A stretch of 64,000 bases of DNA from Sulfuricurvum sp. PD_MW2 (GCF_002633015.1 NZ_NSIU01000011.1:5184-69183), one strand, 5' to 3'; shown: positions 2,117 to 16,063, counted from the first letter of the stretch. The notes: a model not told the origin generated them from the sequence alone. Translations and numbers: made by a program.

Positions 2117-4384
2117 TTATTCCGCATGACAAATCCGATTTCTACCGCTATTTTTAGCTTCATAGAGGGCACTATCGATATATTTTATCGTCTCATGGAT
2201 ACCTTGATCTCTGAAAAGCTTCCCAATACCGATACTAATGGTGATCGACTGATCCAATCCGAAGGGATAATGTTCAACACTATAACGCAAATGTTCGGCA
2301 ACGCTATCAGCTTTTCCCATCGGTGTATGCGGAAGAATAATGATAAATTCTTCACCTCCCCATCGCCCGATTACATCAGTTTGACGTAAATTTTCTTGTA
2401 AAATTTGTGCTATCTGCCGTAAAACATGATCCCCGCTTTGATGGCCATATTGATCATTGATCGATTTAAAATAATCGACATCAATAAGTATCACACTGCA
2501 TTCATACGTTGGATACCGATCCACTTTACGCTGCTCTTCCAAAAGTTTTTCATCGGTTTTTTGGCGATTGTAGAGTCCTGTCAATTTATCGGTAATTGAA
2601 AGTTCCAAAAGTTTTATATTGTATCGTCTGAGGATAAAATAACGCCATGTAAACGCAACAATCCCCACCATAATTAGTGCAAAAACTTTCCAAACCAAGG
2701 TATTGTCTATCCATGCCACCTGCTCAATTGCAGAAACCCATTCATTATAGATTTTCTGCTTAGTAGCTTCATCCAGCTGTACGATAAGCTTTTGAAAGAT
2801 ATTGAATAAGTGCGGCTCATCATTGCGTACAGCCACTCTCAACTCATCTTTTTCTTCGAGGCGCGATGAGACTTTTAAACTTCCGGTATACCCTTTTTGT
2901 ATATACGAAGTCGTAACGACAAGGTTATCAATGTATCCATAGAGATGGTTGTTTTCAACTTGTTTCAAGCCATCGCTAATCGAATCGACTTCAACAATCG
3001 TAATATTTGGATAACGTTTTTTGAGCCGACTAATAATCTCATATCCTCTGACAACCCCTATCTTTTTCCCATGCAACTGATCAATACTCTCGATAAATGG
3101 TTTGTCCATTGAGGTGACCAAAACATAGGGTAACTCCAAATACGCTGTCGTAAAATCCATATATTTTAGGCGCTCAGGTGTTTTTGAAGCCATCGATAAA
3201 ATATCGCATGTTCTGTTTTTGGCCAGAATCAAAGAGTCATTCCATGATGATGTCGGAATCAGCTCAATCGGGGTTGCCAGTTTGCTTTCAAAGTTTTGCA
3301 TAATGTCCGAAGCGATACCGATATGTTTTCCATCACGGATCGCTTCGAGCGGATACCACTCAGGATCGACACACATCGTTATTTTTTTCTTAGCGGAGAG
3401 GAAATCTTTTTCGGCTTCGCTCAATTGAAATTTATTTTTTGAGCTTTCAATCACATCGCGAAATAAAAATTGCCCCAACTTTTGGTCTTCTCGTATTGCA
3501 CCTGTACGAAGTAATTGTTTATACAAACGGGTTGTTGTCTCACTATTTGTTTCACCGATGGCATAAAAATCGGTCATCATGAGTTTTTTGATAACCTTTG
3601 ACTCATACGCAAGTGCTTCATACGATTTTTTGACATGATATTTTTGAATCAGAATATCGATGATTTCTCCTGAATGCTCTTTTGCATATTTCCATCCAAG
3701 GTTTGTCGCTTCAATGAATTTTTGAGTACGTTCAGGATGCTTTATTGCCTCTTGTTGCGATGTAAAAAGATTTCCGGCATTCATGACAAAACCATACTCA
3801 ACCGGATCAATAATTTCATACGGAAATCGCATTTGATCGAGTAAATATAATTGATTCGAACGGTATGCGCTCATCGCATCGACTTTGCCGTTCACCAATG
3901 GATCAATACTGAATGTTTGATCTACAAAACGGGAATTTTGAGAAGAAATGTCAAAATGAGAGAGCAAGAGAGAAAGGGTACTGTGTTTAAGCTCGTTTTT
4001 TGTCCCCATAATGGTTTTCCCTACCAAATCAGCGGGGCTATCGATCCCTTTTCGGGTAACGAGTACTAAAGGAGAGTGCTGCAAATAGGTTGCCATCACC
4101 ACAATCGGTTTGATTTTTCCATTATCCACTACAATACTGCTGTTATAAACACCATAATTGGCTTTAGCGTTTAAAACTTCGGATACAACATCAGAGTTTT
4201 GTGTATATTCTCTTAATTCTACATCCAAACCTGCATTGCGGTAGAAGCCCTTTTCTTTAGCAGCTATATATCCAGCATATTCGAATTGATATTTCCAATC
4301 CAATTGAACGGAAACTTTTTCTAATGCAGCTGCGCCAAGAAAAGAGGTTATTAGGGTTAAAAACAAAAAAAACTTTAAAAACAT
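2117..4384 (-). CDS. Diguanylate cyclase with NMT1/THI5-like and family-3 periplasmic solute-binding domains
   Basis: Signal peptide, QLDWKYQFEYAGYIAAKEKGFY (THI5-like), CVDPEWYPLE (SBP3), one TM, DKLTGLYNR...DVDYFKSIND...RWGGEEF. Confidence 0.9.
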   Translation of the reverse strand: MFLKFFLFLTLITSFLGAAALEKVSVQLDWKYQFEYAGYIAAKEKGFYRNAGLDVELREYTQNSDVVSEVLNAKANYGVYNSSIVVDNGKIKPIVVMATYLQHSPLVLVTRKGIDSPADLVGKTIMGTKNELKHSTLSLLLSHFDISSQNSRFVDQTFSIDPLVNGKVDAMSAYRSNQLYLLDQMRFPYEIIDPVEYGFVMNAGNLFTSQQEAIKHPERTQKFIEATNLGWKYAKEHSGEIIDILIQKYHVKKSYEALAYESKVIKKLMMTDFYAIGETNSETTTRLYKQLLRTGAIREDQKLGQFLFRDVIESSKNKFQLSEAEKDFLSAKKKITMCVDPEWYPLEAIRDGKHIGIASDIMQNFESKLATPIELIPTSSWNDSLILAKNRTCDILSMASKTPERLKYMDFTTAYLELPYVLVTSMDKPFIESIDQLHGKKIGVVRGYEIISRLKKRYPNITIVEVDSISDGLKQVENNHLYGYIDNLVVTTSYIQKGYTGSLKVSSRLEEKDELRVAVRNDEPHLFNIFQKLIVQLDEATKQKIYNEWVSAIEQVAWIDNTLVWKVFALIMVGIVAFTWRYFILRRYNIKLLELSITDKLTGLYNRQKTDEKLLEEQRKVDRYPTYECSVILIDVDYFKSINDQYGHQSGDHVLRQIAQILQENLRQTDVIGRWGGEEFIIILPHTPMGKADSVAEHLRYSVEHYPFGLDQSITISIGIGKLFRDQGIHETIKYIDSALYEAKNSGRNRICHAE

Positions 4385-4461
4385 ACATCACTAACTTTAT
4401 AAGATTGTGATATATTCTACAGCGTATAAGATAAAATATTTCCTTATTTTAAAAAAAATAA

Positions 4462-5736
4462 TTAATGTTGTCGATTATTATTTTTACGATGCGATTCGGA
4501 TCGAGGTCGGCTGCTTTTCTGAACCGGTTTGTTTCCCCCGTTTCCTCCACTACGATTGGCTCCACCACGACCTCTTTGAATCGGTTCCGGTTTGATCGAC
4601 AGGTCCGGTTCATACCCTTCGATAATACGGCTATCGAGCTTTTTGTTGATCAATTTTTCAATCCCTTTTAGGTATTCGGCCTCATCAACACATACCAAAG
4701 AGAGAGCTTCTCCCTCACATCCGGCACGCCCAGTACGACCGATACGGTGTACGTAATCTTCAGCAATATTGGGAAGCTCAAAATTCACGACATGCGGCAA
4801 TGCGTCGATATCGATACCGCGCGCCGCAATATCGGTTGCGACCAAAACACGTACAGAACTTTTTTTAAAATCATCAAGCGCTTTCATTCGGGCACTTTGG
4901 CTTTTATTTCCGTGAATCGCTGCCGCTGTGATTCCGATTTTTTGAAAATACTCGCTCAGTTTATTCGCTCCATGTTTGGTGCGGGTAAAAACAAGAACCT
5001 GTTCCCACTTATTTTTGTTGATCAATTCACCCAACAAAGCACTTTTCCGCTTGCAATCAACCAAAATGACACTTTGTTTCACCAATTCACTGGAAGTATT
5101 TCGGCGTGCTACTTCAACTTCGGCAGGATTTCGAAGCAAGGTATTTGCGAGGGTTTTGATATCGTCCGAATAGGTAGCCGAAAACATCAAGTTTTGACGT
5201 ACTTTCGGCAAAATATTGATCACCCGACGAATATCGCGTATAAATCCCATATCAAGCATCCGATCGGCTTCATCCAAAACAAATATTTCAACACTGCTAA
5301 GATCAATCGTCCCCTGCCCCACATGGTCCAATAATCGTCCCGGAGTAGCAACCAAAATATCAACACCGGCTTTTAATGTCGTAATTTGAGGATTTATACC
5401 AACACCCCCGAAAATTACGGCACTTTTTAGAGGAAGATGTTTTCCGTAAATTTTTACACTCTCCCCCACTTGTGCCGCTAACTCACGCGTTGGAGTCAAA
5501 ATAAGCGCTCTGATTTTACGGTGTGTTTTTGCATTTTTTTTGTGACTCAAAATATGCAATAAAGGGAGAGTAAAACCGGCTGTTTTACCGGTTCCGGTTT
5601 GTGCACCGGCGAGCATGTCACGTCCTTCCAAAATAAAAGGGATCGCTTGGGCTTGAACCGGTGTTGGGCTTGTATAGCCTTGATCTTTGATTGCTTTTAG
5701 CAATAACTCATTGAGGTTTAAATCGGAAAATGTCAT
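4462..5736 (-). CDS. rhlE: DEAD-box RNA helicase (RhlE-like)
   Basis: [21 protein letters not shown] and HRIGRTGR motifs; basic Gly/Arg-rich tail. Confidence 0.9.
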
Positions 5737-5881
5737 AAAAGGAGATCCTTTGGTGGTTTAGCCCAACCAAAGTCTCAACTGTGGACGGTTTTAGGCAAGA
5801 GGAAACATAAAATAGAAAGTGCAGTTAAAGGCAAGTTCACGCTCACACCAACCGTAGGCATGAATCAATCTCACCATTGTA
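5737..5881 (-). promoter_or_regulatory. Putative -10 box and long structured 5' leader of the helicase
   Basis: TACAAT at 5876-5881; overlapping inverted repeats at 5748-5772 and 5738-5751 cover the AAAGGA SD. Confidence 0.4.
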
Positions 5882-5890
5882 GCGTACTAA

Positions 5891-7186
5891 CTAAAAATTT
5901 GATTGATGATAATTGATTACACAATTACGCCCGTTTTTCTTGGCACGGTATAACGCTTCATCAGAACGTTTCATAACCTCTTTGTAATCATCCTCTTGTA
6001 AATCAAACATTGCGATCCCGAAACTGCAGGTCTTTCGATCGACAATATGAAATGAATGAGCTTCGATGGTATCTCTTATTTTCTCTGCCACAATAGCGGC
6101 TTCCGCATCCGTTGTATGAGGACAAATGATTAAAAATTCTTCACCACCCCATCGTCCCAATATATCGGTTTCTCGAATATTAGCCGATAACGTCTTAGCA
6201 ATCTCGATCAAAACACTATCTCCGATGTCATGTCCAAAGGTATCGTTGACCTCTTTGAAATGGTCAATATCCAACATAATGACCGTAAACGTATATCCGT
6301 AACGTTTGGAGCGTTTTATCTCTGCTCTAAAACTATTTTCCATAAACATACGATTATGCAATTGCGTCAACTGATCCGTTACGGAGAGCTCTTCAACCCG
6401 TTTTTTATTCGTTATGTTATGGCTAATAGCCGTATACCCTGTGCGATTTCCAAAATCATCCACGATCGGATAGATCATCGTATCAAGCCAATAGTACAAC
6501 CCGTGTTTGCTTCTATTTTTTAGCTCTCCATGCCATGTATCGCCATGAGTGATGGTATCCCAGAGTTTTACGAACAAAGGAGGTTTCATATCGGGATGGC
6601 GAACGATACGGTGATTTTTCCCAATCAAATACTCTTTTTTATACCCTGAAATTTTGCAAAAGGCTTCTGAGACTTCGGTGATTTTTCCCTCTAAATCTGT
6701 ACTGGACATAATAATATTTTTATCGATCAATGCCATTTGATTTTCAACCGTTTTTGCGTACTGCTGACTTTTTTCGAGGGCACGATTCAGTGCATTTTTT
6801 AAATTATAGATTTGCAGCGTATTTTTAATACGGGCAATCAACTCCTCTTTTTGAAAAGGTTTCGTAACAAAATCGACCGCTCCGAGTCCAAATCCCTGAA
6901 CGATACTCTCATTATCATGTTTTGCCGTCAAAAATATAATCGGTATTTGGAGAGTTTCAGGAGCCTCTTTAAGCTGTTTGGCAACTTCAAAGCCATTCAT
7001 ACCAGGCATAACGATATCAAGTAAAATCAGATCAGGTTTGGGGTCCAATGAGACGATTTGCAAAACTTTTTCACCATTGGTAGCTACCAGAAGATCATAT
7101 TCCGGACTTAAAATCTCAGCAACGATAGAGATATTTAAACGCTCGTCATCGACGATTAATATTTTGGGTCTGCTATTGTATTTCAT
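5891..7186 (-). CDS. REC-PAS-GGDEF diguanylate cyclase response regulator
   Basis: ILIVDDE, LDIVMPGMNG, PAS (HRIVRHPDM...WHGELKN), RWGGEEF. Confidence 0.92.
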   Translation of the reverse strand: MKYNSRPKILIVDDERLNISIVAEILSPEYDLLVATNGEKVLQIVSLDPKPDLILLDIVMPGMNGFEVAKQLKEAPETLQIPIIFLTAKHDNESIVQGFGLGAVDFVTKPFQKEELIARIKNTLQIYNLKNALNRALEKSQQYAKTVENQMALIDKNIIMSSTDLEGKITEVSEAFCKISGYKKEYLIGKNHRIVRHPDMKPPLFVKLWDTITHGDTWHGELKNRSKHGLYYWLDTMIYPIVDDFGNRTGYTAISHNITNKKRVEELSVTDQLTQLHNRMFMENSFRAEIKRSKRYGYTFTVIMLDIDHFKEVNDTFGHDIGDSVLIEIAKTLSANIRETDILGRWGGEEFLIICPHTTDAEAAIVAEKIRDTIEAHSFHIVDRKTCSFGIAMFDLQEDDYKEVMKRSDEALYRAKKNGRNCVINYHQSNF

Positions 7187-10104
7187 GGTAAACCTATCAT
7201 ATTTTTTAGAAGTGGCAAGGCTTCATCGTATTCATACGCATACAAATACTCGATTGTCCGTTCGCGTACGTCATCATCCACACAATATTTCAACATTTTG
7301 TTGAGTAATTCTACTCTTGCGGGAGCTATTATTTTTGATTGAACCAAATCGTCGATAAGCTCTCTTATATACGTTTCTAACGCTTCTCTCGTATAGACTT
7401 CACTTTGAATTATTTCATCGTCTTCGCTGTAAAAATTCCGAATATTCTGAACCATTTCAACCGATGCTATAACGAGTTTATGGGTAATATCTTTGATCTG
7501 ATCCGGATCATTGGATACTTCAAGCGCACTTGCCAATGGATAAATTTCTTTCATCGAGAGATTACCGCTGATTCCTTTAAGCGTATGAACCAGATTTTTA
7601 AATGTTTCATCCCCAATTTTTAAAGAGTCTATTTTGGATTCTATATTTTCATATTCACTGCAAAAATAGAGCATATAGCGCTTTATCTTTTCGGTGTCAT
7701 TTCCGATACGGTCTATCAATTCTGCCATATCGATCCCCTCGATCTCACCTTCAAATTGACTCTTGGTAATTGGGTTTTCTACCGTTTTTGTTGGTAAACT
7801 ATCCGTTTTAGGAGAAATCCATTGCACCAGCGCTTTGAACAACTCATTTTTATTGATCGGTTTGCTCAAATGGGCATTCATACCCACTTCTGAGGTAAGT
7901 TCTCTGTCTTTTTGCATCACAGCGGCACTCAAGGCTATAATCGGAGTATCAATATTATTGGCAAGCTTTCGTATCACTCGTGTCGCTTCAAATCCATCCA
8001 ATAGAGGCATTTGTATATCCATCAAAATCAAACTGTAATCCTTTGATGAAGCATATTCAACAGCTTTTTGCCCATTCTCAGCGATCTCTACAACCATCCC
8101 CAATTCCTCTAATAACTCAACAACGACAAGCTGATTAATTTTATTATCTTCCGCCAATAAAATTCGGGAACCTTTGATAGCATTGAGCTTCTGAGGATCA
8201 ACCGCAATTTCTTCGCTTTGCATTGCAGGTGTAAATGATTTCATTTTTCCAAATTCAGTAGTAAAGAAAAATCGGCTCCCTCGGTTCGGCTCACTTTCAA
8301 CCCATATATCGCCGCCCATCATAGTGACCAACTGTTTGGATATCGCCAAACCTAACCCCGTTCCCCCAAATTGTCGTGTAATGGAGGTATCAGCTTGTGA
8401 AAATTCCTGAAATATTTTCATTTTGGCTTTTTCATTCATCCCTATGCCGGTATCTTCTATACAAAATTGCAAATAGACATTATTCTCATCTTCACTGGTC
8501 ATCATGACATGGATAAAAATTGATCCTGTTTCTGTAAATTTGATTGCATTCCCCACAAGATTTGTCAATATTTGGGTCAATCGCAACGCATCCCCGATCA
8601 TAATACTCTCTAATAAACTAACATCGAGCCGCAGTGTCAACCCTTTTTGTACGGCTTGAAATTCAAAAAGACTCATGATATTGTTCAAAACACTTTTGAC
8701 GTCAAAAGGTTTGTTTTCCAAAACAAATTTGCCGGCTTCAATTTTCGAATAATCCAAAATATCGTTGATCACATCAAGTAATGCATGGGAGGATATATTC
8801 GATTTTTCGAGAAAATCCCGCTGTTTCGCTTCTAACTCTGTTTTCAATACCAATTCAGTGAGACCGATAATCCCATTGAGCGGTGTTCGTATTTCATGAG
8901 ACATATTGGCCAAAAAGTCCGACTTGGCTTTTGCGGCGGCTTCTGCTTCCTCTTTTGCTTTTTCAAGGGCCAATTGATGCTCTTTTTGCTCGGTTATGTC
9001 GATCCCTATCGTAGTGACATACTGCATTTGCCCATTTTCATCGTTCACCAAGGCATTGGACCATTCAAACATCCTCTCAACACCCTCTTTGGAGATCCAG
9101 GCATTTTGAAAGCTTTCCGTGATATTTCCATCACGTGCATTGCTAATAATGCCCGTAACTTTGTCTTGCATATGCGGTTGCAAAAAACGTGACCAAAAAT
9201 AGGGTTCTGAAGCAATCTTTTCTTGGGTATAGCCGCAAAAACGCTCTCCATAGGGATTGATATTAATCATCACCCCATCACGATCAATGACGGCAATAAT
9301 CGCATTGGCACTTTCAATAAACGTCCGATTGATATTTTTTGCAAATCTCAATTTGTCTTCCAGTTCTTTGCGTTGCAAAATATCTTCTTGTAGCGTCTCA
9401 ACCATCTCATGTAACTTTGCATTACGCTCTTCGATCTTCTGCTGCATGAGCGCGAACGTATCGGAGAGTATCGAAATCTCATCACCGCGAATAATGTTAT
9501 CTTCAACCGTTGAATCATCCCCATTGGCAATCTGTTTTGCGTACTGCGTCAATTGATTCAGGGTATTGGTCAAGCGCTGACCGATAAAATACGCAAAAAA
9601 GGAACTAATCGTGATTTCAATCATGATCAACAAAAAAGTGAGTTTTCTATTATCCTCAACGATTTTTAAACTCTCTGTCAATTCAAATAAAATCTTTGCA
9701 TACCCGATCTCTTCACCTTTGATGACAATCGGAACATTTTTTAGTCTAAACGTCCTCTCATCTTTCATCACATCATGAGAAAAGATCGTAAAATCATCAA
9801 TATCCAATGTCGGATCTATACTGGCACGACTGACAAGACGTCCATCTTTGTCAAATACTTTGACTGCGGCAATATTTTTGAGCTGAACAAAACTTTTAGA
9901 TTGATCGTCCAAAGTCGCTAAATCAAATACGATAAGGGGAGTTTTTACCATCTCGGTGAACAGTGTCGTTCCGGTCTCGATTTTCTCTTCGATAAGAGAA
10001 TGGGATAATTTAGAAAGTGATGTAAAATTAAAAAAGACGATCAGTGAGATAAAAATAACTTCAATCGTTAAAAAAGAGAGAATAAAACGATAACGAAACG
10101 ACAA
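7183..10104 (-). CDS. Hybrid sensor histidine kinase (TM-HAMP-PAS-HisKA-HATPase-REC-Hpt)
   Basis: FLANMSHEIRTPL, NLVGNAIKFT, DTGIG, GGTGLGL, LAEDN...DIQMP, HTLKG. Confidence 0.92.
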   Translation of the reverse strand: MSFRYRFILSFLTIEVIFISLIVFFNFTSLSKLSHSLIEEKIETGTTLFTEMVKTPLIVFDLATLDDQSKSFVQLKNIAAVKVFDKDGRLVSRASIDPTLDIDDFTIFSHDVMKDERTFRLKNVPIVIKGEEIGYAKILFELTESLKIVEDNRKLTFLLIMIEITISSFFAYFIGQRLTNTLNQLTQYAKQIANGDDSTVEDNIIRGDEISILSDTFALMQQKIEERNAKLHEMVETLQEDILQRKELEDKLRFAKNINRTFIESANAIIAVIDRDGVMININPYGERFCGYTQEKIASEPYFWSRFLQPHMQDKVTGIISNARDGNITESFQNAWISKEGVERMFEWSNALVNDENGQMQYVTTIGIDITEQKEHQLALEKAKEEAEAAAKAKSDFLANMSHEIRTPLNGIIGLTELVLKTELEAKQRDFLEKSNISSHALLDVINDILDYSKIEAGKFVLENKPFDVKSVLNNIMSLFEFQAVQKGLTLRLDVSLLESIMIGDALRLTQILTNLVGNAIKFTETGSIFIHVMMTSEDENNVYLQFCIEDTGIGMNEKAKMKIFQEFSQADTSITRQFGGTGLGLAISKQLVTMMGGDIWVESEPNRGSRFFFTTEFGKMKSFTPAMQSEEIAVDPQKLNAIKGSRILLAEDNKINQLVVVELLEELGMVVEIAENGQKAVEYASSKDYSLILMDIQMPLLDGFEATRVIRKLANNIDTPIIALSAAVMQKDRELTSEVGMNAHLSKPINKNELFKALVQWISPKTDSLPTKTVENPITKSQFEGEIEGIDMAELIDRIGNDTEKIKRYMLYFCSEYENIESKIDSLKIGDETFKNLVHTLKGISGNLSMKEIYPLASALEVSNDPDQIKDITHKLVIASVEMVQNIRNFYSEDDEIIQSEVYTREALETYIRELIDDLVQSKIIAPARVELLNKMLKYCVDDDVRERTIEYLYAYEYDEALPLLKNMIGLP

Positions 10105-11003: not shown

Positions 11004-12479
11004 ATGATTTTCACTATGATACAGTTATCTCCCGAAGCACGGCTCACTATTATTCTCCCGAACACCAATAAAGCCCTCTCGGAGGTGATCAAAAATGCTA
11101 CCCCAGAGCAACTCGAAACGCTCAAAGAGGGAAAAGATATCAAATCGCTTCTCACCTCGGCATTTCAAGATAAAACGACCGCTTCCAAATCCGATCAAAC
11201 GTTGCTTGACCTGCTCAAAAATTCTTCTTCTTTTAAAAATATAGGAAATTTCAGCGATTCACTTCAATCGCTTCTCAAAGAGATGAAAACTTCTCCGGAG
11301 ATGGCTCCAAAAGTACCCGTTTTAGAGAATTTTTTGAAAAACATGATCTCTCTCGACCCTCAAAATCTCAAAAAGCAGATCGCTTCGAGCGGTGTGTTTA
11401 TGGAATCTAAATTTGCCACTGCACTCAACAAAGTACCCGATCTGATTCAAAATCTCGAAACGCTCAAATCACTCCTCACGAAAATACCGACGAATGATGC
11501 CAAAGCTCTGCAAAACACTATCACCTCGTTGCTCACAAGCTCCATACTGCCATCCGCAAGCACGAATCCGCAAAGCGCACTCCAACTCACCGAGGGGGTC
11601 AAAAAAATTACCGAAATCCTCCAATCATTGATCACAAAAACTGATTCTCTGTATTCTAAAGAAGTGGCAGCACTAGCCATAAAACTCGATCAATCTTCTA
11701 CTCTTTCGGAGATCAAAAACACGTTATCGGAACTGTATGGAACGCTTCTCTCAAGCAAAGCACCCGATGCGAATTCGCTTCTTGATTCGATCGAAAAACT
11801 GCTTAAAACGCTAACTTCTACATCAACAAATGAACTTTCTACTTTTAGCGATGAACTCAAAAGTGCGATTGAGAGCAACAGCACCAAAGAGATAATAACA
11901 ATCAAAACAAAATTAAGTGAATTCACAAATCCCAAAGAACTGCACACAGAGACTTTTATCAAAGAGGCAATGGAGAGTGATCTCAAATCCCATCTCCTCT
12001 CTTTGCACGAAGAGTTAAGTCAATCAACTGATCCAAGTGGACCCAAACTTCTGGAACAGGCTGATAAACTCCTCACTCAAATTGACTATCATCAACTTCT
12101 TTCCCATTTAAGTTCATCCAACTCGATCTATTTTCCGTTTGTATGGGATCAGCTAGAGGGAGGATCTTTAGCGTTCAAAAAGGGCAAAGAGAAAAAATTT
12201 TATTGTGAAATCAATCTCAAACTCAAAGAGTACGGAGAACTCGATCTCATGATGGGATTGTATGATGAAACACAATTGGAGATCCAAGCCCATACTGAGA
12301 AAAGTGCTCTAAAAGCTCTGATTCAAGACAACATTGCCAATCTTCGATCTTTGCTTATTCAAGCGGGACTAACTCCACGATCTATTCGTGTTTTTGAGAG
12401 AAGCGAAGCCCATACACCGCTTCAAGAAAGCTATCACCCATCGGAAGGCTCAGATATGGGATTTGAGGTAAAAGTATGA
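11004..12479 (+). CDS. FliK-like flagellar hook-length control family protein
   Basis: Low-complexity Ser/Thr/Leu-rich body; FliK_C-like end (FYCEINLKLKEYGELDLMMGL); overlaps a FlhB-like gene; alternative start 11016. Confidence 0.6.
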   Translation: MIFTMIQLSPEARLTIILPNTNKALSEVIKNATPEQLETLKEGKDIKSLLTSAFQDKTTASKSDQTLLDLLKNSSSFKNIGNFSDSLQSLLKEMKTSPEMAPKVPVLENFLKNMISLDPQNLKKQIASSGVFMESKFATALNKVPDLIQNLETLKSLLTKIPTNDAKALQNTITSLLTSSILPSASTNPQSALQLTEGVKKITEILQSLITKTDSLYSKEVAALAIKLDQSSTLSEIKNTLSELYGTLLSSKAPDANSLLDSIEKLLKTLTSTSTNELSTFSDELKSAIESNSTKEIITIKTKLSEFTNPKELHTETFIKEAMESDLKSHLLSLHEELSQSTDPSGPKLLEQADKLLTQIDYHQLLSHLSSSNSIYFPFVWDQLEGGSLAFKKGKEKKFYCEINLKLKEYGELDLMMGLYDETQLEIQAHTEKSALKALIQDNIANLRSLLIQAGLTPRSIRVFERSEAHTPLQESYHPSEGSDMGFEVKV

Positions 12480-12724
12480 AAAAAGCGGTCGCACTCGGAT
12501 TTGATATTGAAAAAGACCGTGCTCCGCGTGTTGTAGCCAAAGGAAAAGGTGCAAGTGCGGAAAATATCATCAAAATCGCCCAACTCCACAATCTCCCTAT
12601 CAAAGAAGATGAAGATCTGGTAGAGCTCCTCAGCAAAGTAGAGCTAGATCGGGAAGTGCCCGAAAAACTCTACGTTGCGGTCGCCGAAGTGTTTAGTTTC
12701 ATTTACAAAATTACGAAGAAATAA
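12476..12724 (+). CDS. Stand-alone FlhB C-terminal-like (EscU/YscU family) protein
   Basis: KKAVAL...APRVVAKGKG...EIPEKLYVAVAEVF-type pattern (EVPEKLYVAVAEVF here). Confidence 0.88.
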   Translation: MKKAVALGFDIEKDRAPRVVAKGKGASAENIIKIAQLHNLPIKEDEDLVELLSKVELDREVPEKLYVAVAEVFSFIYKITKK

Positions 12725-12728
12725 ATCT

Positions 12729-14120
12729 CTATTGTGAAAACTTGATCCCCATGTTGTAGGTTGAAAACGGTATCGCACGATCAGGCTCAATCATAAAATT
12801 ACACTCGCGTTTAATATTCGTCGCATCAAAGTTATAGATATCCGAAAACTCCATGATAACAATGCGATAGACATTTTCATACCCCATGTCCGAGGGGGCT
12901 AAAAATGATGGCCAACAGCAAAAGAGCTTTTGTTTGATCTTGTCTTTGAGTATCCCCTCTCCCATCGCCGTATCGAGGCTCACCGTCTCGATAATCGTTT
13001 TGACAAATGCTCTATCTTGCTCAAACGCTACTGTTCCGACATGCGATGTGACGATCTCTTTGGGTATTTTTCCCGTGACGGGAAACAACTCGGCATATCC
13101 ATCTTTCATCTGTTTCGCCGCATAGCCAACCCCTATTTTATGCGGATCGCACGGTAGAGGGATCATATCCTCTCCGGTGAACGGATTGCGCGCATCGTCG
13201 ATGATACGGGAACGTATCTCCGAGAGGGTAATACGAAAATCATCGGCTGCATCAATCCGTCCCGCTTCCTGAACGGGTTGAAAGACCACACCGCGTACAC
13301 ATCGATAGCGACGTGAAAAATCAATAATATCAGGGATTTCGTGATCGTTGACCCCTTTTTTGATGACACACACCAATGTTGTCGAAATACTATATTTTTC
13401 AAGCAACTCCAACGCTTTGAGACGGATGGAGCGCATATCTCTGGCCCGAATATCGCGAAGTGCTGCCTCTTGCAACGAATCAAACTGCAAATAGACTTCA
13501 AACCCGCCGCCGAGCGATTTGAGTTCTTTGACAAACGCTTCCTCTTCGGAAATACGAATACCATTGGTGTTGAGCATCAAATGGCGAACGGGAGATTTCT
13601 TGAGAGTACGTAAAATCTCCATAATCTGCGGATGAGTTGTCGGCTCTCCCCCCGTCACCTGTATCAAATCAGGCTGGCTCTCGACTCTCAGCAGTGTGGC
13701 GAGCATCTGCTCGATCTGCTCCATAGAACGATGATTTCCCGCCCCAGGATAAGAGGAGAAATAGCAGATATTGCATTTCATATTGCACTCATCGGTGATG
13801 TTGAAAAGAGCGAGACACGGATGATTCTGATGCTGAGGACACACACCGCAATCGAACGGACAGCCGCGTAGTACCTGAGTATTCGATGTTTCGGGAAGAT
13901 CGGGCGCTTTGAGGTAGCTATCACACGTTTTGAAATACTCATAGTCATCCGAGATTTTCACCATCGATTCACCGCATTTCGGACAAAATTTGCGTAAAAA
14001 CACCTCATTGTCTTTCGCAACGATATGGGTATCGATAAGTTTGGTCAAATTGCTGCATTGATGGCAAAAACTCTGCGTAGCATTGAGATATAAATCGTAG
14101 GTTTTAGAGTAGTGAGCCAT
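12729..14120 (-). CDS. Radical SAM protein, Tes/GDGT-MAS (MJ0619)-like family
   Basis: CHQC...CPKC, CPFDCGVCPQH, CNMKCNIC (CxxxCxxC), TGGEPT, MLNTNG, IPFSTYN; start placed at MAHYSK (14120) rather than the track's 14180. Confidence 0.85.
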   Translation of the reverse strand: MAHYSKTYDLYLNATQSFCHQCSNLTKLIDTHIVAKDNEVFLRKFCPKCGESMVKISDDYEYFKTCDSYLKAPDLPETSNTQVLRGCPFDCGVCPQHQNHPCLALFNITDECNMKCNICYFSSYPGAGNHRSMEQIEQMLATLLRVESQPDLIQVTGGEPTTHPQIMEILRTLKKSPVRHLMLNTNGIRISEEEAFVKELKSLGGGFEVYLQFDSLQEAALRDIRARDMRSIRLKALELLEKYSISTTLVCVIKKGVNDHEIPDIIDFSRRYRCVRGVVFQPVQEAGRIDAADDFRITLSEIRSRIIDDARNPFTGEDMIPLPCDPHKIGVGYAAKQMKDGYAELFPVTGKIPKEIVTSHVGTVAFEQDRAFVKTIIETVSLDTAMGEGILKDKIKQKLFCCWPSFLAPSDMGYENVYRIVIMEFSDIYNFDATNIKRECNFMIEPDRAIPFSTYNMGIKFSQ

Positions 14121-14124
14121 AAAA

Positions 14125-14757
14125 TCAATGCCCGCTTGTTGCAATGACAACAGGGATAAAAATAGCCATTCCAACGACAAACATCACGCCATCTGCCGCT
14201 ACTGCGATCGGTGTTCCCAAAATTTTTACCACTACCGGAGATCCCTCTTTTTTAACCTCATTTACGGTTATGTAAATCTCTTTTGAAAGCTGTTGAGCCT
14301 TCTCATTGACATAACGGTCTGAAAAATAGCGTTTGCCCTTGAGCGAGATAGGGATGGTATACACTTTTGTTTTTGGGTTCAACGATACATGATTATCATT
14401 AATCCACTCTTGCAGTTCTTGATCGATAGTTTTCGAATCAATTGTTACACTAAAGCGTGCATTGAGCGTATCATTTTCAGCTTGGAAACGGGCACCTTGC
14501 GATACGTTGAATGTTATAGAAGCGTTTTCTCTATGCTTTAAGAGATAACCGAATTGAGGATTGGCATCAAAAATGTAGTGATATTTTTTTCCTAAAAAAA
14601 TGGTCTCATCATTTTTTGCATTTAATAAAAAAGCATCAATCGTTTCACTATAAGGCGTATACGTTACCTTATCTTCCCACAACTGACTTGTCATGCACCC
14701 CATTGACATAAAACTCACCATCGCAATCACCAATGTGACCCAAAATGTTTTTTTCAT
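14125..14757 (-). CDS. Putative lipoprotein with hydrophobic C-terminal segment
   Basis: MKK, hydrophobic stretch, SMGC; C-terminal ILGTPIAVAADGVMFVVGMAIFIPVVI; ATG at 14757 overlaps the upstream stop (ATGA). Confidence 0.7.
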   Translation of the reverse strand: MKKTFWVTLVIAMVSFMSMGCMTSQLWEDKVTYTPYSETIDAFLLNAKNDETIFLGKKYHYIFDANPQFGYLLKHRENASITFNVSQGARFQAENDTLNARFSVTIDSKTIDQELQEWINDNHVSLNPKTKVYTIPISLKGKRYFSDRYVNEKAQQLSKEIYITVNEVKKEGSPVVVKILGTPIAVAADGVMFVVGMAIFIPVVIATSGH

Positions 14758-15446
14758 TCCCGTGTACTTTCTGATTTGAGATAGATAAGCGCATACATCA
14801 TCAGTATGAGGCACAGTATTTGAAACAAAGTAAGACCGAAGAGGACTTTTTCATACGGTTTTAAAAACTCCCATACAAAGCGCTGTAGAGAATAATACCC
14901 TATAAATTGATAAAAAATAGTGTGTTCGAATGTTTTTTTACGGTAATAAAACATCCATACGGAATAGAGAAAAAACAACCCCAGTGCGACACTCTCATAG
15001 AGCTGTACGGGGTGTCTAAAAATGCCGTCTCCAAAATCGTGTCCGAGAATACTCGACGTCTCTATCCCATATGTATAATCGTCAATCCCTGATAGATAAC
15101 ATCCGATGCGACCGATAGCGATCCCAATAGCCAATGAAGGTACAAAATAGGCTCCCGTTGAGCCTTTGATATTTGCAGCTTTTTTGAAGAGTTCTGCGGC
15201 AATCACTCCCCCGAATAGAGAACCTAAGACCGATTTTCCGATCACTAGTGCACCGGTGGAGAGATAGGCATTCCATGTCCCGAAAGTAAATCCACCGAAT
15301 ACAAATCCAAAAAGCAATGAGGTGTAATAGCCGTATCGAAGAGTCTCATTTTCGATGTGCTGTGACTCAGAACGAATCCATTTCCATGAGATTAACAGTG
15401 CAACTGCATACGAGAGAAGATCAAAAAAAAGATGAATTTTCATCAA
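14754..15446 (-). CDS. Divergent prolipoprotein diacylglyceryl transferase (Lgt) family protein
   Basis: Multi-TM; IGRIGCYLSG, YG..T, RHPVQLYE, RFVWEFLK; KSVLGSLFGG in place of the canonical FHGG. Confidence 0.82.
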   Translation of the reverse strand: MMKIHLFFDLLSYAVALLISWKWIRSESQHIENETLRYGYYTSLLFGFVFGGFTFGTWNAYLSTGALVIGKSVLGSLFGGVIAAELFKKAANIKGSTGAYFVPSLAIGIAIGRIGCYLSGIDDYTYGIETSSILGHDFGDGIFRHPVQLYESVALGLFFLYSVWMFYYRKKTFEHTIFYQFIGYYSLQRFVWEFLKPYEKVLFGLTLFQILCLILMMYALIYLKSESTRE

Positions 15447-15449
15447 AAA

Positions 15450-15737
15450 TTAATGAGTTGAAAAAGTGGTATTGGCACATTGCGCAAAAAGGATAAACGT
15501 CGAAAGCCATACGACAGCGTTGAGGATCATATAGGCTTTTAGCTTTTCATTTTTTTGCAATAATCCTTGTATTTTTCTGAGCGTATAGACGTATATTCCA
15601 CCGGAAATTGCCACAGGTATGAATAACAAAGAATCGCCCATCATCCCCATCAGGAGCATCCCTCCCCCTGTACCGAATAAAGCCAATGATCCGATAATAT
15701 AGGAGAGAACTAAAACCCCTTCTATTATTTTTTGCAT
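15450..15737 (-). CDS. Small membrane protein
   Basis: 95 aa, about three hydrophobic helices, 3 nt from the lgt-like start. Confidence 0.6.
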   Translation of the reverse strand: MQKIIEGVLVLSYIIGSLALFGTGGGMLLMGMMGDSLLFIPVAISGGIYVYTLRKIQGLLQKNEKLKAYMILNAVVWLSTFILFAQCANTTFSTH

Positions 15738-15757: not shown

Positions 15758-16063
15758 TTATACGATTGGCGCCCGATCTATCAGAGAAAGCGGTTCGTTA
15801 ATATCAAATATTTTGGCATTGATCGGCGAAATACCAAAACTGTTCAAACGCTCCGTATGCATTTGCAAGTAGGCCATTGCTGATGCTTCATCCTCAAAAA
15901 GATAAATCCCTCCAGCTTCTTTGGTGGCAGCATTTTCAGTCCATATTTTCCAGATCAACCCTTTTTCTTGTGCAATGCTCTCCGCTAGCGGAGCAAATGC
16001 TTCACTCATCGCTTCACCAAAAGGACCGTCCATTATAAAATCGATTTGTAACAGTTTTTTCAT
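15758..16063 (-). CDS. ydhR: YdhR family putative monooxygenase (dimeric alpha/beta barrel)
   Basis: LLQIDF..GPFG, GLIWKIWTEN, EAGGIYLF, YLQMHTERL. Confidence 0.85.
   Translation of the reverse strand: MKKLLQIDFIMDGPFGEAMSEAFAPLAESIAQEKGLIWKIWTENAATKEAGGIYLFEDEASAMAYLQMHTERLNSFGISPINAKIFDINEPLSLIDRAPIV

Follow-up and report, generated by a model that had tools for sequence, protein, structure and literature searches.

An Lgt paralog coupled to a Tes-like radical SAM enzyme forms a widespread bacterial module with a candidate role in the lipidation of small cysteine-bearing membrane proteins

Lgt moves diacylglyceryl from phosphatidylglycerol onto a protein cysteine, and three enzymes (Lgt, LspA, and Lnt) are thought to define bacterial lipoprotein biogenesis. 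Why, then, does a 64,000-nt stretch of the Sulfuricurvum sp. PD_MW2 genome (NZ_NSIU01000011.1:5184-69183; referred to here as the window) encode a divergent Lgt in one minus-strand operon, at positions 12729 to 15737, with a radical S-adenosylmethionine (SAM) enzyme that resembles the archaeal tetraether synthase Tes, also called GDGT-MAS? The operon is made of four open reading frames (ORFs), all on the minus strand, which encode, in order of transcription, a 95-amino-acid (aa) membrane protein, the Lgt paralog, a putative lipoprotein of the YidX family, and the radical SAM enzyme. We conclude that a widespread bacterial membrane module, composed of an Lgt paralog, a Tes-like radical SAM enzyme, and at least one small membrane protein, is represented here in the form carried by Sulfuricurvum-like Campylobacterota.

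The four genes are tightly packed. Read directly from the sequence, the junction between the 95-aa gene and the Lgt-like gene is TAA-TTT-TTG, a gap of 3 nt that becomes 6 nt if translation starts at the ATG at 15443, the start chosen by the Lgt-like homologs. The Lgt-like stop and the lipoprotein start overlap by 4 nt (ATGA), and 4 nt separate the lipoprotein gene from the radical SAM gene (TGA-TTTT-ATG). The first-pass annotation of this DNA, which described four genes with gaps of 3, −4, and 4 nt, is thus borne out by our ORF calls and by the junctions themselves, with either 3 or 6 nt at the first. A scan of the operon region for promoters and terminators returned no more sites than were found in shuffled sequence.

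The pairing of the two enzymes extends far beyond Sulfuricurvum. A scan of one genome per species recovered 80 loci (39 to 51% identity, with one at 78%) that span Bacillota, Bacteroidota, Alpha-, Beta-, and Gammaproteobacteria, Planctomycetota, Acidobacteriota, Gemmatimonadota, and others. When these loci were searched with a hidden Markov model built from five Lgt-like seeds, 72 had a same-strand Lgt-like ORF, mostly abutting the radical SAM gene and usually ending where it starts; among the eight loci without such an ORF, four end at a contig edge. Among 151 Flavobacteriaceae genomes, the Lgt-like and radical SAM genes are carried by an identical set of 24 (16%), an overlap with a chance probability of ∼2e-28, and the pairs lie on the same contig and the same strand, mostly abutting. 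The two activities can also reside in one polypeptide: P0142, a metagenomic protein of 733 aa, is a natural fusion of LGT, Zn-ribbon, and radical SAM domains, in which the radical SAM part is C-terminal to Lgt. Because the Lgt C terminus is cytoplasmic (PMC4728403), the fusion puts the radical SAM domain in the cytoplasm. Close relatives of the window enzyme (65 to 95% identity) come from Sulfuricurvum-like Campylobacterota and also from Gracilibacteria, and an LGT gene lies upstream in every gene context of these relatives that we read. Adjacency, co-occurrence in all 24 Flavobacteriaceae carriers, and one fusion exclude an incidental neighborhood of the gene pair. A lack of conserved linkage to lgt-like genes, which the first-pass annotation had named as refuting its reading, was not observed. 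A second apparent fusion, a 716-aa ORF in locus L027, was rejected as a high-GC open-frame artifact, as Pfam shows no LGT domain in frame.

The Lgt-like gene (14754 to 15446; 230 aa from the TTG) encodes a divergent member of PF01790, which it matches at 73.9 bits (cutoff, 24.9) over profile positions 17 to 237 of 240. The match to TIGR00544 reaches 36.2 bits, below the equivalog cutoff of 118.9. Because a canonical lgt is present on another contig of the same genome (219 bits with PF01790 versus 72 bits for the window copy), the window gene is a true paralog. Olleya, Neobacillus, and Phenylobacterium genomes likewise have one Lgt-like match (203 to 346 bits) and a canonical lgt (29 to 58 bits) each; in the genomes examined, the Lgt-like gene is always additional to canonical lgt. 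A profile of 24 Lgt-like proteins aligned with the Escherichia coli protein (b2828; structures 5AZB and 5AZC; PF01790, TIGR00544) with 98% probability over 219 columns (hhalign, E = 1.8e-13), and the AlphaFold2 model, with a mean predicted local distance difference test (pLDDT) score of 92.4, predicts seven long helices. The window copy differs from E. coli Lgt in its length (230 versus 291 aa) and in its reduced periplasmic head.

A residue census of 76 Lgt-like family members, for which we use E. coli numbering, separates what has been kept from what has changed. R143, G142, G145, H196, P197, Y201, and R239 are kept in all 76, Y235 in 75, and E202 in 73, with Asp in the remaining three; E243 is kept as well. 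In the window protein, the equivalents of R143, R239, Y235, E202, and H196 are R113, R189, Y185, E151, and H145, respectively, and they fall in the motifs G112-R113-I-G-C116 (E. coli G142-R143, with N146 replaced by Cys), RHPVQLYE (H196 to E202), and Y185...R189. In E. coli Lgt, R143, E202, Y235, and R239 make up the second phosphatidylglycerol/diacylglyceryl site (PMC4728403), and the lipid-binding and catalytic cavity of the Lgt-like protein is probably retained. Other positions have changed throughout the family: N146 is Cys in 75 of the 76 members (Cys116 in the window), Y26 is His in 68 (His5 in the window), R246 is Lys in 75, and the His of the HGGL motif, H103, has been lost to a hydrophobic residue. 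Judged by these patterns, the paralog looks like an Lgt in which the lipid side is conserved and the acceptor side has been redesigned; unlike Lgt itself, it coexists with a canonical copy and is linked with a radical SAM enzyme.

The last gene of the operon (12729 to 14120) encodes a 463-aa radical SAM enzyme, which we assigned as Tes/GDGT-MAS-like from family and structure searches and from its placement in a clade. Its zinc-ribbon/rubredoxin-like site is C19HQC22...C46PKC49. Residues 86 to 97 (GCPFDCGVCPQH) hold the N-terminal auxiliary cluster site, C87, C91, C94, and H97, the ligands being defined by C73, C77, C80, and a His in MJ0619, the Tes of Methanocaldococcus jannaschii. The radical SAM cluster motif, C112NMKC116NIC119, is encoded at 13764 to 13787. 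All three elements named in the first-pass annotation (CxxC...CxxC, CPFDCGVCPQH, and CxxxCxxC) were thus located in the protein. Cysteines scored as specific to its clade are C102, C274, C324 (PLPC), C401-C402 (LFCCWP), and C440 (KRECN). Pfam assigns PF23545 (Zn_ribbon_HMPTM) and PF04055, and the best-scoring NCBIfam model is TrsS (NF045646; 267.3 bits, cutoff 490), with Tes (NF045702) at 231.8 bits (213.5 in the genome scan), short of its cutoff of 450, and MoaA at 70.5 bits versus a cutoff of 284.

The best PDB match is 7TOL, GDGT-MAS of M. jannaschii (E = 5e-53), and the AlphaFold2 model of the enzyme (pLDDT 78.8; predicted template modeling score, 0.84) superimposes on 7TOL in Foldseek over its whole length, with a template modeling (TM) score of 0.78, an E value of 1.4e-33, and ∼500 columns. 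The next folds, MoaA and SkfB, match the radical SAM core alone (TM, 0.36 to 0.38), and the structural neighbors after MoaA include SkfB, SuiB, and anSME. The model therefore contains the overall GDGT-MAS architecture: the rubredoxin-like, N-terminal auxiliary cluster, radical SAM core, and C-terminal domains. The likeness to Tes (MJ0619; 7TOL, 7TOM) covers this four-part layout, the N-terminal CxxC...Cxx(C/H) metal site, the CxxxCxxC...H auxiliary motif, and the CX3CX2C cluster, at 27 to 28% identity.

Within this superfamily, however, the enzyme does not belong with Tes. In a tree of 162 sequences, inferred with FastTree only, all Lgt-linked enzymes, including the window enzyme and the fused P0142, form one clade (96 rows, support 99), and MJ0619 is placed in another clade, sister to TrsS. 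Representatives of the MJ0619 clade score 480 to 638 bits on the Tes model, and members of the TrsS clade score 545 to 675 bits on the TrsS model; ten representatives that we scanned, at least three of which (P0140 to P0142) are Lgt linked, all fall under both cutoffs. The Tes cutoff was reached in just 3 of 14 control genomes.

We compared the cysteines of 75 Lgt-linked, 6 Tes, and 9 TrsS sequences. The zinc-ribbon cysteines are common to the three groups, and C112/C116/C119 and C87/C91/C94/H97 are invariant in all of them (75/75, 6/6, and 9/9). The C-terminal half is different. Three cysteines conserved in Tes and TrsS, which we take to be ligands of the C-terminal cluster, align to K328, E439, and S453 of the window enzyme, and these positions are Cys in 8, 0, and 0 of the 75 Lgt-linked sequences, respectively. 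The Lgt-linked clade has cysteines of its own instead: C324 in all 75, C401, C402, and C440 in 74 each, and C274 in 71; C102 is common to the window enzyme and TrsS. The C-terminal cluster of Tes bears the carbon-sulfur intermediate of the coupling reaction (PMC9433317, PMC13459092). Because this site appears to have been rebuilt, the comparison suggests that the Lgt-linked clade performs chemistry that is akin to, yet different from, that of Tes. Two further traits set the groups apart, as the window family is bacterial and is always paired with an Lgt-like gene, and Tes is not. Thus, the Tes/GDGT-MAS layout claimed in the first-pass annotation stands as far as the whole fold is concerned, but orthology does not: the enzyme is nearer to the Tes/TrsS superfamily than to MoaA, and it sits in a clade of its own, below the Tes cutoff and with altered C-terminal cysteines.

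What do the two enzymes act on? The third partner that is conserved across phyla is a small Cys-bearing membrane protein, rather than a lipoprotein. The gene pair is adjoined in 55 of 69 loci by a small, very hydrophobic ORF whose product has a Cys within a hydrophobic segment, and 62 such proteins from 46 loci, a set that consists of ORF calls made in this analysis, cluster together. They come in two layouts: the Cys lies either at the end of the last helix (SLGICG, GFGxC, NAACFG) or at the end of the first helix (LxGGC, GLC). Both have a K/R-rich stretch, then a helix, then the Cys. When the positive-inside rule is applied to this arrangement, the Cys is predicted to sit where an in-to-out helix reaches the periplasm, as a lipobox Cys does. 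The proteins are hydrophobic almost throughout, have no conserved core beyond the Cys, and continue for 2 to 12 residues after it; the adjacent genes are often in tandem duplicate.

In the window, this partner is the 95-aa protein (15450 to 15737), whose ORF is preceded by a GGGGGA ribosome-binding site and has homologs of 81 to 96% identity. It has approximately three hydrophobic helices, with a K/R-rich loop around residues 53 to 67 before the last one, and it ends in ...FILFAQ-C87-ANTTFSTH (Cys87 codon, 15477 to 15479); with its K/R loop, helix, and Cys87 it follows the first layout. The homolog in the cassette of a second Campylobacteria genome, G074, is 25% identical and ends in ...LSLGCVSAIS, its Cys aligned with Cys87. 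We consider the 95-aa protein, on these features, a candidate for the dedicated acceptor of the Lgt-like enzyme and the local form of the conserved small Cys partner.

A second candidate lies between the two enzyme genes. The 210-aa putative lipoprotein (14125 to 14757) was tentatively assigned to the YidX_N family by precomputed PF27265 hits, weak or faint, on its homologs. It has an N-terminal signal-like helix that ends in FMSMG-C21 (Cys codon, 14695 to 14697), a KYHYIFDA motif, and, toward the C terminus, TPIAVAADGV ahead of a transmembrane helix; G20-C21 is invariant in six homologs. The N-terminal ...GC signal, KYHYIFDA-type core, and C-terminal helix are common to the family, which includes E. 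coli YidX, a predicted lipoprotein. The window protein differs from stand-alone family members in being embedded in the Lgt-like/radical SAM pair, and its lipobox differs too: residue −3 is S or T in most embedded copies (SMGC, TTGC, SLGC) and L in stand-alone copies (LSGC, LGGC), relatives of which kind exist in Cupriavidus, although one of two tandem copies in locus L112 reads LTGC. Only in the window, L008, L012, and L112 (as the two tandem copies) does the YidX-like gene occupy this place between the two enzyme genes, and in L008 its product is the sole Cys-bearing candidate. It is absent from the G074 cassette (locus L114) and from the Gracilibacteria locus, where small LCGG/TCGG proteins are found instead. 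The YidX-like lipoprotein is therefore an add-on limited to Sulfuricurvum-like relatives, and it may be a second substrate. The first-pass annotation had coupled the two enzymes to a lipoprotein and proposed a dedicated lipid or lipoprotein-anchor modification system, for example cross-linked or macrocyclic acyl chains, or the lipidation of a private substrate. A lipoprotein is indeed present here, but it is confined to these relatives and the small Cys membrane protein is the partner conserved across phyla; the private substrate fits the conserved Cys residues of neighboring proteins (Cys87, C21, and those of the 55 loci).

We favor, with middling confidence, a pathway of dedicated S-lipidation of Cys proteins followed by radical remodeling of the attached lipid. 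Cys87 of the 95-aa protein, and possibly Cys21 of the cotranslated YidX-like lipoprotein, would receive a glyceryl lipid from the Lgt-like enzyme. The cytoplasmic radical SAM enzyme, perhaps docked on the Lgt-like protein as the P0142 fusion suggests, would then use a 5′-deoxyadenosyl radical and the rebuilt Fe-S site in its C-terminal part to activate a lipid-tail carbon that is itself unactivated, and the new C-C or C-S bond would give rise to a cross-linked, macrocyclic, or membrane-spanning anchor. A more specific version can be offered only tentatively: the Lgt paralog S-links the small membrane protein (and, here, the YidX-like lipoprotein) to a glyceryl lipid whose tails the Tes-like enzyme joins, either among themselves or with a lipid from the opposite leaflet, so that the anchor becomes macrocyclic or membrane spanning. 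The product would be a protein-lipid conjugate of a type new to bacteria. In a variant reading, the new His/Cys pair in the Lgt-like cavity makes a different transferase altogether.

Several observations weigh against this pathway. The position of H103 is His in none of the 76 Lgt-like proteins and hydrophobic in all of them (Leu74 in the window), and in E. coli Lgt H103 is essential, with no substitution able to complement (PMC4728403); the reaction may therefore be something other than classical thiol diacylglyceryl transfer. The predicted acceptor Cys is periplasmic and the radical SAM enzyme is cytoplasmic, and the two steps could meet solely via the lipid tails. We regard the absence of H103 and the opposite sidedness as real difficulties. 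The context of Cys87, FAQ-C, is not a canonical lipobox, and the Gracilibacteria Lgt-like copy has Ala at the clade-specific Cys116 position. A Foldseek search of the PDB with the Lgt-like model gave no match with an E value of <0.4 and no Lgt entry among the 50 matches listed, and a phmmer search of PDB sequences with the protein found nothing; because Foldseek gave no significant match, the homology to Lgt is based on the profile alignment. Finally, relatives in the Tes superfamily (TrsS) occur in nonlipid contexts, and the fold alone proves no lipid substrate.

Could the pair act on free lipids instead? The two enzymes might remodel bulk phospholipids into diabolic-acid-like, macrocyclic, or membrane-spanning forms, with the Lgt-like protein presenting phosphatidylglycerol and the small Cys proteins acting as accessories (anchor, regulator, or thiol relay). 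The whole GDGT-MAS fold of the enzyme speaks for such a role, as does the Lgt-like cavity, which keeps the phosphatidylglycerol/diacylglyceryl pocket residues and has lost H103 on the acceptor side. Among the carriers, Flavobacteriia and Bacillota are rich in iso-branched fatty acids. Many carriers belong to such groups; a resemblance of iso-branched ends to phytanyl ends has been argued (PMC8941075), and bacterial Tes homologs have been proposed as the enzymes that make branched glycerol dialkyl glycerol tetraethers (PMC8941075, PMC11868695). Yet the three Tes/TrsS C-terminal cysteines are lost across the whole Lgt-linked clade, a single small-protein Cys is conserved across phyla, and Tes itself needs no Lgt partner; the patchiness of the module within a genus and its presence in only 16% of Flavobacteriaceae would also be odd for a bulk-membrane trait. 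We think remodeling of free lipids somewhat unlikely. Very improbable is a bona fide Tes or Mss ortholog that makes tetraether-like lipids beside incidental lgt-like and lipoprotein genes. GDGT-MAS is the best PDB match, and the enzyme would pass the loose BLAST criteria used for "Tes homologs" (E < 1e-50, identity >20%; PMC8941075), but its 232 bits are far from 450, it lies in a separate clade without the C-terminal cysteines, and the linkage excludes an incidental neighbor.

The radical chemistry might also be directed at protein. The small Cys protein would then be a precursor in which the radical SAM enzyme makes a thioether or another cross-link at or near the Cys and to which the Lgt-like enzyme adds a lipid, yielding a lipopeptide, a product like those of ribosomally synthesized and posttranslationally modified peptides (RiPPs), or a covalently tethered membrane protein. 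Cys thioethers are common products of radical SAM enzymes that have auxiliary clusters, and SkfB, SuiB, and anSME come next after MoaA in structure; the small genes are often tandemly duplicated, as RiPP precursors are, and the TrsS relatives are evidence that the superfamily extends beyond lipids. Set against these points, the small proteins are hydrophobic almost throughout, with short tails and no core beyond the Cys, the Cys is predicted to be periplasmic, away from the cytoplasmic enzyme, and the contexts we read contained no protease or exporter gene conserved in the cassette. We judge a peptide-directed pathway improbable. Hardly credible, in turn, is a cofactor-type enzyme, whether MoaA/PqqE-like or a pterin methylase, that merely happens to neighbor a spare housekeeping Lgt. 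MJ0619 was first annotated as a pterin methylase, the N-terminal Pfam domain is named after HMPTM, and there is a weak MoaA match. This match of 70 bits, however, is far below 284 and below the Tes and TrsS scores (232 and 267), and the structural match is to the core alone (TM of 0.36 versus 0.78), so the grouping with MoaA/PqqE that the first-pass annotation named among the outcomes refuting its reading was not observed. The Lgt-like protein, for its part, is no spare housekeeping copy, as it has lost H103 and has Cys in place of N146 in 75 of 76 members, and the linkage is conserved.

We found no description of the module in literature that joins Lgt with radical SAM enzymes or tetraether synthase, and a 2026 review of lipid-modifying radical SAM enzymes leaves lipoproteins unmentioned. 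The radical SAM enzyme Mss of Thermotoga and Thermoanaerobacter has been proposed to couple bacterial acyl tails (Sahonero-Canavesi et al. 2022, PMC13159169), chemistry of the sort suspected for the window enzyme; we liken the two by description only, and the papers that we read report no Lgt partner for Mss. What the window adds is the YidX-like insertion and the kinship between Campylobacterota and Gracilibacteria (69 to 70% identity). That many phyla carry a second, rewired Lgt inseparable from a radical enzyme of lipid tails points to an unknown pathway of protein lipidation or lipid cross-linking and, possibly, a fourth route in lipoprotein biogenesis. Lgt is pursued as an antibiotic target, and paralogs with changed acceptor sites are therefore relevant to drug discovery. 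The module may also matter to geochemistry. Bacterial "Tes homologs" are counted as candidate producers of the branched tetraethers used as paleoclimate proxies (PMC8941075, PMC11868695), although, according to a 2025 survey, they have not been tested experimentally (PMC11868695). The window enzyme would pass the loose Tes criterion, and its clade spans many phyla. Because the C-terminal cluster site of this clade is rebuilt and its Lgt-like partner is obligate, however, counting it there may yield systematic false positives. Cultured carriers, among them Neobacillus, Paenibacillus, Olleya, Maribacter, and Hymenobacter, make the question directly testable.

How did the cassette reach the window? 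Among 301 Campylobacteria genomes, an ortholog is found only in the window genome and in G074, and two genomes of the same genus as the window do not have it. The genes that flank the G074 cassette are unlike those of the window. In the same-genus genome G284 (locus L111), fliK/flhB-like genes are followed directly by homologs of the window genes at 21.7 to 26.5 kb; thus, the window from 12.7 to 21.7 kb (∼9 kb) is a variable block. A clean empty site was not found in the same-genus genome G230, where ydhR and fliK/flhB lie on different contigs. Besides the cassette, the block holds ydhR, a REC-PAS-HD-GYP regulator, a hybrid kinase, and SCO. These comparisons indicate that the cassette is accessory and mobile.

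Its reach extends to the candidate phyla radiation. Gracilibacteria locus L006 (contig PDRA01000033.1, 3003 to 6043) encodes an LGT protein, a pair of small xCGG membrane proteins, and a radical SAM enzyme that is 69 to 70% identical to that of the window. The genes of this locus are readable only when TGA is translated as Gly, which points to transfer of the cassette between Campylobacterota and a candidate-phyla-radiation lineage long enough ago for recoding.

The Tes superfamily has other homes in Campylobacterota. Another family of this phylum carries a true TrsS (675 bits; cutoff, 490) in loci L101 (G190, 3411 to 8259) and L102 (G131), in a conserved block that lacks Lgt and also encodes a methyltransferase, a C_GCAxxG_C_C-like protein, a PaaK-like ligase, and an XdhC-like protein. 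By our account of TrsS, which draws on the NCBIfam model and on the gene contexts read here, the N-terminal half is shared with the window enzyme and the Tes-type C-terminal cysteines are kept in TrsS but not in the window clade; the methyltransferase/XdhC-like context without Lgt is a further difference. Thus, the Tes superfamily serves at least two unrelated contexts in this class. In other Tes/TrsS members (P0227, P0246, P0273, and P0284), the fusion partner is a SAM methyltransferase, DUF5714, or a MobA-like NTP transferase, with or without an HD domain, evidence that the scaffold is put to many uses.

On the strand of the window cassette, 20 nt separate the 95-aa gene from the end of an upstream gene for a putative monooxygenase of the YdhR family (15758 to 16063; PF08803, 145 bits), which may be cotranscribed with the cassette; a YdhR-family gene does not adjoin the cassette in G074, L008, L012, or L112. 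At 11004 to 12724 on the plus strand, a FliK-like gene (PF02120) shares 4 nt with the gene for an FlhB C-terminal-domain protein of 82 aa that stands alone (TIGR00789, 111 bits). The two genes run toward the end of the radical SAM gene, and only 4 nt lie between the convergent stop codons.

A small Cys-rich CPXCG protein (PF14255) adjoins the cassette in two unrelated loci from metagenome-assembled genomes, one epsilonproteobacterial (L012, 441 to 626) and one from Gemmatimonadaceae (L017, 3140 to 3355), perhaps by chance or as a metal or electron partner. In L112 (Sulfuricurvum sp. JAQTUH010000007.1, 1 to 3601), DsbD and a 637-aa Thioredox_DsbH protein (PF03190) precede the cassette, and the stop codon of the latter gene overlaps the Lgt-like start by 4 nt, a context that hints at a tie to thiol redox. 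In the window itself, a gene for an SCO protein lies further upstream of the cassette.

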